Positions 57,572-57,831 of a stretch of 64,000 nt of DNA are shown here, one piece after another (position 1 is the first letter of the stretch; each line of letters starts with the position of its first letter). The stretch lies in the IMG/VR virus record IMGVR_UViG_3300033405_000003; one strand, written 5' to 3'. The translations under genes and the position numbers were made by a program. The DNA comes from a virus (taxonomy: Duplodnaviria; Caudoviricetes). Under the pieces are notes generated by a model. The model worked only from the letters and a program-made list of their open reading frames with translations, had not been told where the DNA came from and ran no database searches.

Positions 57572-57831
57572 ATGCACACCTCGATGCCGAAATCGCCCAT
57601 GCAGACCCGGAGGCCGCTGAGCCAATCAGCAGTGCTTTCAGGGTCGTGGTGCATTTTGTGCCCAGTGACAGCGCCCGGAGTCGATAGCCTTGCACGCGTT
57701 TATCCGGCCTCCCCCAGCGAACCGAAGTTCGCGACGCGCAATCAGGAGGCCGGTACCTAGAGGCGGTTCTTTCACTCGCGCAACAGCGCAGGAAGGGCCG
57801 CCTCGGAGACGAGAGCGGCCCTTCGGCATTT
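57572..57831 (+). promoter_or_regulatory. putative leader peptide (57572-57760) + antiterminator/terminator attenuator
   Basis: 57760-73 can pair with 57791-804, excluding hairpin 57792-57824 that is followed by GGCATTT. Confidence 0.6.

Follow-up and report, generated by a model that had tools for sequence, protein, structure and literature searches.

A putative ribosome-dependent transcription attenuator at the head of a viral transfer RNA array

A 64,000-nucleotide (nt) stretch of viral DNA (IMG/VR record IMGVR_UViG_3300033405_000003; Duplodnaviria, Caudoviricetes), referred to here at its full length as the window, contains a gap of 460 nt between the genes for two transfer RNAs (tRNAs), tRNA-His (57438–57512) and tRNA-Tyr (57972–58057). 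The gap holds an element in which an open reading frame (ORF) is followed by two competing RNA hairpins. We favor, with moderate confidence, the reading that this element is a ribosome-dependent (leader-ORF) transcription attenuator that gates the viral tRNA array of about 30 genes behind it; the control would probably extend to everything downstream as far as rsr. Comparatively well established, from the comparison of related loci, are the selection on the leader frame, the stop codon fixed on the antiterminator arm, the two mutually exclusive and covarying helices of similar energy, and the fixed place of the element at the head of the array. From these we infer that the leader is translated in vivo, that transcription ends at the hairpin, which way the regulatory logic runs and what signal is sensed.

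The features of the element and its two flanking tRNAs all lie on the + strand. Leader ORF1 (57572–57760) starts with ATG at 57572, comprises 62 codons and ends with TAG at 57758–57760. The 5' arm of the antiterminator, R2 (57760–57773), begins with the G of this stop codon and forms 14 base pairs (bp), 11 of them Watson–Crick and three G-U, with R3 (57791–57804), the strand common to antiterminator and terminator, which is defined by pairing and covariation. The helix encloses an apical 4-bp hairpin (57778–57789) that is compatible with both states and carries compensatory changes in several of the related lineages described below. R3 is also part of the terminator-like hairpin T (57792–57824), which consists of 14 pairs (57792–57805 with 57810–57824), one bulged A and a GNRA-type loop (GAGA). 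The tail after T (57825–57836) is an interrupted U-run ending in TTTCAGGG and is conserved in all lineages. An earlier reading of this DNA, made from the letters alone (the sequence-only reading), had described a 62-codon ORF with all 20 amino acids and 40 codon types that stops at 57760, and its coordinates and letters are confirmed here, as is the 14-bp pairing of 57760–57773 with 57791–57804 overlapping the stop. The hairpin that it placed at 57792–57824 is present as well, but is longer than it was described to be.

In the window, the antiterminator hairpin has a predicted energy of -28.5 kcal/mol, as against -27.8 kcal/mol for the terminator-like hairpin, and the 101-nt region as a whole folds at -46.1 kcal/mol (z = -3.15). 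After dinucleotide shuffling of the 120 nt upstream, 14 of 2000 sequences contained a partner for 57789–57805 of equal quality. The single window sequence is only moderately unusual, and the weight of the case comes from its relatives.

In the proposed mechanism, RNA polymerase would enter either from upstream of tRNA-His or from a conserved block at 57516–57571, and ORF1 (57572–57760) would be translated. A ribosome that keeps pace with the polymerase would reach the TAG and, judging from the general footprint by which ribosomes protect messenger RNA, would cover the antiterminator 5' arm at 57760–57773. The shared strand 57791–57804 would then be free to pair with 57810–57824, forming the terminator-like hairpin and ending the transcript near 57830. 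If the ribosome lags, stalls anywhere earlier in the frame of 53–67 codons, or is never loaded, 57760–57773 would pair first with 57791–57804. The resulting antiterminator, made first and of nearly the same energy, would let the polymerase continue into a second reading frame (ORF2), tRNA-Tyr and the rest of the array.

The relatives used for comparison come from soil and peat metagenomes and comprise 11 further DNA lineages and two that are represented by protein only, which together with the window gives 12 DNA lineages and 14 peptides. They were reached by three routes. A scan of Joint Genome Institute (JGI) metagenomes with the hairpin pattern, its loop left free, yielded the true relatives L150, L151 and L156; six of the nine matches to the pattern were chance matches in GC-rich coding DNA. 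Protein look-ups with ORF1 (by word index, with two proteins returned) led to L157 and L158–L161, and a profile search of 1.84 billion representatives added ten more peptides, seven of them with DNA (L162–L168). The full profile search found 11 relatives, one of which is a truncated gene call, and one spurious match. A covariance model built on the element detects the full core in all 12 DNA lineages and no core elsewhere in the 1.27 Mb of loci that were fetched via neighboring genes.

Wherever the flank is present, the order is the same: ORF1, the two hairpins, ORF2 and tRNA-Tyr, followed by Lys, Lys, Gln, Asn and further tRNAs. In contigs from four unrelated soil and peat runs, the segment 57430–57921 stays at about 90% identity and both flanks are replaced. 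The element is as conserved as the tRNAs (identities of 0.75–0.93 and 0.60–0.94, respectively), and every ORF1 relative with fetched DNA sits at the head of a tRNA array, with no homologs outside this type of locus. By these comparisons, the element is a conserved unit at the head of the tRNA array. Exact and degenerate DNA patterns of the element found no copy in IMG/VR or GTDB genomes, a blastn search of phage records returned no match for the gap region, and no paralogous copies occur within the window. A scan of 56900–64000 with Rfam 15 (cmscan, E value up to 1) gave no match within 57513–57971, and only tRNA-like matches were listed. Loci in IMG/VR that were reached through the histone deacetylase (HDAC)-like and Rsr proteins are not syntenic, and neither blastn nor the covariance model detected a copy of the element in them.

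A 62-codon open frame is in itself unremarkable at 67% G+C, the base composition of the window. Across the relatives, however, ORF1 ranges from 53 to 67 codons, keeps its start ATG and its stop, and is the only frame without interruption in all lineages tested. Of the 36 length differences from the window between five internal nucleotide anchors, 35 are multiples of three, and these represent at least 11 distinct classes of insertion or deletion (indel). The lone change that is not a multiple of three is found in L167 and lies at the stop codon, where TAG has become TAA. The non-coding antiterminator segment just past the stop, by comparison, changes in length by 1, 1, 6, 1, 1, 2, 1, 3 and -1 nt. 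The pattern of indels is strong comparative evidence that ORF1 is under frame selection.

The peptide itself behaves differently from the frame. Pairwise ratios of nonsynonymous to synonymous substitution rates (dN/dS) for ORF1 lie between 0.3 and 1.3, and L150 has had the middle part of its peptide replaced. Several short motifs recur (SGSWC, YPAS and a C-terminal RNQEAGT), and no Pfam family matches the peptide. Synonymous sites are nearly frozen in the last 19 codons, because these codons form a hairpin (I3, described below). Taken together, the comparison suggests an amino-acid sequence under little constraint, which fits the pattern expected of a leader whose translation, rather than its product, matters. 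The codon usage of ORF1 also sets it apart from the real genes of the window: 18 of its 62 codons end in A or T (29%, as against 7%), its G+C content at third codon positions is 0.71 (as against 0.92–0.97), and codons that are rare for this genome are enriched four-fold.

Two further hairpins lie inside ORF1. H2 (57606–57643) is part of the minimum-free-energy fold, and its apical stem has three compensatory pairs in L150. I3 (57704–57753), at the 3' end of the frame, consists of an outer stem (57704–57712 with 57745–57753) and an inner hairpin (57717–57722 with 57727–57732), and an AGGAGG motif occurs in its 3' arm, 8 nt ahead of the stop. At an identity of 0.93, I3 is the most conserved part of the locus; 98–100% of its alignment cells are paired in the 12 lineages, and its pairs almost never vary, so that the sequence is conserved besides the pairing. 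I3 may act as a pause or synchronizing hairpin. We also note that the 8-nt motif TTTCAGGG occurs twice, at 57636–57643 in the 3' strand of H2 and at 57829–57836 in the tail after the terminator-like hairpin, each copy conserved among the lineages; the one in the tail could be a competitor for the 5' strand of H2.

Both competing hairpins form in RNAfold predictions for all 12 lineages, with mostly similar energies (-19 to -34 kcal/mol for the antiterminator and -24 to -29 kcal/mol for the terminator). In 12-lineage alignments fitted to each structure, 99.4% of the cells in the terminator helix are paired, and changes on both sides are seen at eight of its 14 pairs. The corresponding values for the antiterminator helix are 94.5% and seven of 14 pairs. 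None of 500 shuffles reached the observed values, either for the antiterminator or, with the whole structure scored, for the terminator. When the partner columns of the antiterminator are shifted by one to three positions as a control, pairing drops to 43–62%. An unfitted alignment of five sequences shows the same trends more weakly, with 91–96% of cells paired.

The upstream arm of the antiterminator tracks the shared strand by three independent signs. The R2 and R3 of each lineage pair better with each other than do R2 and R3 taken from different lineages. In L158 and L162, a G-C pair of the antiterminator has become A-U, a change that is tolerated in the terminator as G-U. In L165, the antiterminator has gained a matched extra G:C pair. 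In addition, all lineages, among them L167 with its TAA, have the stop codon at the edge of the antiterminator 5' arm, where it either includes the first base of the arm or lies immediately next to it. Covariation in homologous leaders had been named as a check on the attenuator proposed by the sequence-only reading, and the 12 DNA lineages bear it out, with compensatory changes in both helices and the frame kept. The architecture inferred there (a leader, a stop on the antiterminator arm and competing helices) likewise survives the comparison, in which both the position of the stop and the in-frame nature of the indels are retained.

Behind the hairpin, and overlooked by that reading, lies ORF2 (57903–58011), which has a Shine–Dalgarno sequence (AGGAG, 57903–57907) and starts with ATG at 57919. 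Its 30 codons extend into tRNA-Tyr, the anticodon loop of which supplies the TAA stop. All 12 lineages contain an ORF2 of 18–38 codons with an ATG, a purine-rich Shine–Dalgarno-like motif and an R-x-Y-x-x-S core, and its end is always inside tRNA-Tyr. L166–L168 lack the 60-nt block that otherwise separates the hairpin tail from ORF2, and the tail is followed after only 19–30 nt by the ORF2 start and then by tRNA-Tyr. Because this distance leaves no room for a promoter, the array of these three lineages must be transcribed through the hairpin.

Several candidates in this region were considered and rejected. A second promoter at 57846–57876 was discarded, as its motif has no second copy in the window and L166–L168 lack the entire block. 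An inverted repeat at 57857–57880 was discarded as a hairpin, as its 5' arm varies without compensation and the covariation term for the region is unfavorable. In L167, ARAGORN calls a 'tRNA-Pyl (CTA)' at positions 1825–1911 of that lineage's sequence, which had been read as an amber suppressor linked to the change of the leader stop from TAG to TAA; the alignment shows the ordinary GTA anticodon of tRNA-Tyr, and the call is mis-registered.

Upstream of ORF1, a conserved 5' block (57516–57571) contains an A-run, a TTGCAC motif and a mini-ORF, and could be a promoter or a 5' untranslated region. It is conserved in 11 of the 12 lineages and presents no consensus sigma-70 promoter. The sequence-only reading had placed a weak promoter at TTGCAC. 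In L168, the TTGCAC block is missing and ORF1 starts about 10 nt past tRNA-His. The block, widely kept as it is, need not be a promoter because L168 lacks it, and, for the same reason and given the short distance between tRNA-His and ORF1 in that lineage, transcription can enter from upstream of tRNA-His. The mini-ORF at 57545–57553 reads ATG TCC TAG (start, Ser, stop), and 11 lineages have at this place an ATG or GTG, one or two codons (three in L166) and a stop; these bases may instead be part of a promoter -10 region.

What the leader would sense is a separate question from whether it attenuates. The leader of the window contains 20 different amino acids in 40 different codons, and none of the 14 leaders has a run of codons for one amino acid, the defining feature of classical leaders. 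Since every amino acid is represented and rare codons are enriched four-fold, the output of the switch would report general decoding capacity rather than the supply of one amino acid. All 14 peptides, which share 44–82% pairwise identity, contain all 20 residues, and each of the peptides has a single Trp, a single Tyr and a single Asn. For a length of 62 codons, the share of sequences with all 20 residues is 1.1% among six-frame windows, 1.8% among random stop-free sequences matched in composition and 5.7% among windows from real genes. Where a usual residue is lost, it turns up elsewhere: in peptide P0009 the Trp of the SGSWC motif is gone and reappears in a TRRP motif, in P0013 the usual Asp is lost and reappears in the C-terminal motif, and in P0010 Lys and Asn are swapped. 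Against this stands a null that keeps the composition of each alignment column and breaks the links between columns, under which all 20 residues are still present in 64% of samples. The 14-of-14 count has p = 0.002 under this null if the lineages are independent, and about 0.03–0.1 for five to eight effective lineages. We regard the all-20 signal as suggestive. The earlier proposal that the leader senses the loss of any tRNA gains from the 14 complete peptides and from the relocation of lost single-copy residues, but loses force under the column null. It is a tentative possibility, and a good deal less probable than attenuation as such, that the leader serves as a sampler of the whole genetic code: whichever tRNA ran short or was cleaved, the leader ribosome would slow down and the switch would flip, and replacement tRNAs would be turned on.

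A number of observations weigh against attenuation by the leader. In all lineages the hairpin is followed by a short, interrupted U-run, which the sequence-only reading had called weak in the window and which misses the simple terminator rule of our scan; no obvious canonical terminators were seen elsewhere in the window. (L150 has a longer U-rich insertion in the tail and a better U-run.) No lineage has a Shine–Dalgarno sequence at ORF1, whereas ORF2 has a clear one, which agrees with the earlier remark that the leader lacks a clear ribosome-binding site. When fully transcribed, the terminator state is thermodynamically favored in 9 of the 12 lineages, by 5–12 kcal/mol in total, and the model depends on kinetics for this reason. 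The 12-lineage covariation counts rest on alignments fitted to each structure, and in the unfitted five-sequence alignment the observed paired share of the antiterminator was reached in 15 of 500 shuffles and its covariation score in 47 of 500. Nine of the 11 extra DNA lineages were found via predicted proteins, a route that favors intact ORFs (only L150 and L151/L156 came from the nucleotide pattern). None of the sequencing runs listed for the stretch is an RNA run. Finally, the leader is unusual in being three to four times the classical length and heavily structured (H2 and I3), features that would suit an RNA aptamer equally.

Such an aptamer is one of three rival accounts. The structured domain of about 190 nt (H2, H3 and I3) would bind a ligand, a protein or a tRNA in the manner of a riboswitch or T-box, the two hairpins would be its expression platform, and translation of ORF1 would be secondary or serve for tuning. 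The extensive conserved structure inside the ORF, with its compensatory changes in H2 and an I3 helix that is invariant at the sequence level, speaks for this account, as do a nucleotide conservation that matches or exceeds that of the tRNAs and the lack of a Shine–Dalgarno sequence at ORF1; a sensor of uncharged tRNA placed before a tRNA array would also be biologically sensible. However, the indel classes inside the domain (at least 11) are all multiples of three and those just outside are not, which is unexpected of an untranslated domain, and the stop is kept on the antiterminator arm even through the change from TAG to TAA. With no T-box or other Rfam match at an E value up to 1, we consider the aptamer rather improbable. 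Alternatively, ORF1 could be an ordinary small gene for a protein of 53–67 residues, inserted in the array together with its own terminator, with no regulatory role for the upstream pairing partner; the conserved frame speaks for this. Small genes are common inside phage tRNA clusters, and the recurring peptide motifs (SGSWC, YPAS and RNQEAGT) and some pairwise dN/dS values down to 0.3 point the same way. Yet the antiterminator covaries and tracks the shared strand, as would not be expected of a by-product. The nearly frozen synonymous sites of the last 19 codons, a codon use unlike that of the genome's genes, and the wholesale replacement of the peptide middle in L150 also speak against an ordinary gene, as do the absence of a Pfam or PHROG family and of homologs outside this locus type, and the lack of room for an array promoter behind the hairpin in L166–L168. 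We judge the small gene unlikely.

The hairpins could also be processing or stability signals of the tRNA precursor, either as a cleavage site (for RNase III or RNase E) or as a stem that protects the 3' end of a transcript containing tRNA-His and ORF1. The weak U-run is in favor of this account, the element lies between two tRNAs that need excision from a precursor, and RNase III typically acts on long perfect stems such as these. A cleavage site, however, needs no pair of exclusive, covarying helices of similar energy, and the fixed overlap with a conserved stop codon would be left unexplained; this is, in our estimation, the least probable of the three, and quite unlikely. By the sequence comparisons, each rival fails on either the in-frame indels or the covarying antiterminator, and attenuation by a translated leader would account for both.

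The proposed attenuator resembles the leader-peptide attenuators of amino-acid operons, i.e., the trpL, hisL, pheL, leuL and ilvL class (reviewed in PMC1183508; for pheL, PMC3082878). The shared design comprises a leader ORF, the translation of which is predicted here, a stop placed such that the terminating ribosome would mask the antiterminator 5' arm, and a shared strand that chooses between an antiterminator and a GC-rich terminator hairpin; the extra upstream hairpin could correspond to a pause signal. Unlike that class, the leader described here has no run of codons for a single amino acid and uses every amino acid, mostly once or twice. It is also longer (53–67 codons, as against 14–30), has a weak U-run and no Shine–Dalgarno sequence, and the genes regulated would be tRNAs of a virus-like element rather than biosynthetic enzymes.

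Leader ORFs that sense general translation stress have been described for vmlR of Bacillus subtilis (PMC9226507) and for the upstream ORF (uORF) toiL of E. coli (PMC12121999). As in these systems, the signal would be ribosome stalling as such, and stalling would favor read-through into the downstream genes. The vmlR and toiL leaders differ in being very short uORFs with antibiotic-responsive stalls at specific sites (toiL acts via Rho) and in controlling resistance or toxin-antitoxin genes, whereas nothing in the element indicates a specific stall site or antibiotics. Moreover, the output here would be the tRNA supply itself, which would close a feedback loop. With T-box riboswitches the element would share a conditional terminator/antiterminator pair that responds to the tRNA pool. 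T-boxes are not translated, recognize a single tRNA through a specifier codon, and control genes for aminoacyl-tRNA synthetases and amino-acid metabolism. The element, unlike these, contains a selected reading frame, and it has no match to the T-box model RF00230 at an E value up to 1.

Large phages and virus-like elements often carry tRNA arrays, and recent work ties such arrays to escape from host tRNA-cleaving defenses and to codon-usage mismatch. To our knowledge, hardly any regulation of such arrays has been described. Neither for tRNA operons nor for phage tRNA arrays did full-text literature searches turn up a leader-peptide attenuator, and we know of no other leader-peptide attenuator with a signal that goes beyond one amino acid or one drug. 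If the proposal is right, a translated leader that reads overall decoding capacity would represent a new regulatory logic for tRNA supply. Should the sampler function hold as well, the triggers might be, for example, host anticodon nucleases or host shut-off, and the element would provide a virus-encoded, homeostatic and counter-defense control of tRNA supply. The element is compact (about 270 nt) and comes in 12 natural variants with built-in compensatory changes. It also offers a caution for annotation: ORF1 is almost never called by gene callers, and nothing is annotated in the 460-nt gap by tRNA and Rfam scans.

The stretch occurs in peat metagenomes, according to the listing of sequencing runs. 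tRNA-His(GUG), called by both ARAGORN and Rfam, lies directly 5' of the element and occupies the same place in the relatives (11 of the 12 DNA lineages, the exception being L165, in which it was not called). tRNA-Tyr(GUA), the first gene of the array behind the putative switch, folds as a cloverleaf; its variable arm is long, its T-loop is unusual, and its CCA is encoded. Neither ARAGORN nor the Rfam tRNA model detects it in the window, but ARAGORN calls its homologs in most relatives. Downstream of the element, ARAGORN reports 30 tRNAs on the same strand, to which the uncalled tRNA-Tyr is added; the 41 tRNAs counted in the sequence-only reading were not reproduced. Three gaps in the array (59437–60055, 60304–60466 and 61835–62042) contain only weak tRNA-like Rfam matches (e.g., 59735–59804 and 61846–61915); they may hold non-canonical tRNAs, which could explain the higher count.

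The array is followed by an HNH gene and then the Rsr/TROVE gene, the TROVE domain of which starts at 63470, in agreement with the earlier placement of rsr downstream. A 690-nt gap (62784–63469) without any Rfam match separates the last tRNA (Pro) from this gene, and is the expected place for Y-RNA-like partners of Rsr. None of ten large ORFs of the window matched a PHROG family. Just 5' of tRNA-His lie an HDAC-like gene (56192–57064; Pfam E = 3e-31) and a small Cys-rich ORF (57138–57368). The best match of the HDAC-like gene among phage records, at 41% identity, is in an uncultured 595-kb phage; about 80 relatives of it occur in IMG/VR contigs, none adjoining tRNA arrays. Directly 5' of tRNA-His lies a conserved nested hairpin (57399–57437), in which about 7 bp of outer stem enclose a 4-bp stem and its GAAA loop. 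L150, L156 and L157 have this hairpin as well, and it could serve to terminate transcription of the small gene upstream or to direct processing.

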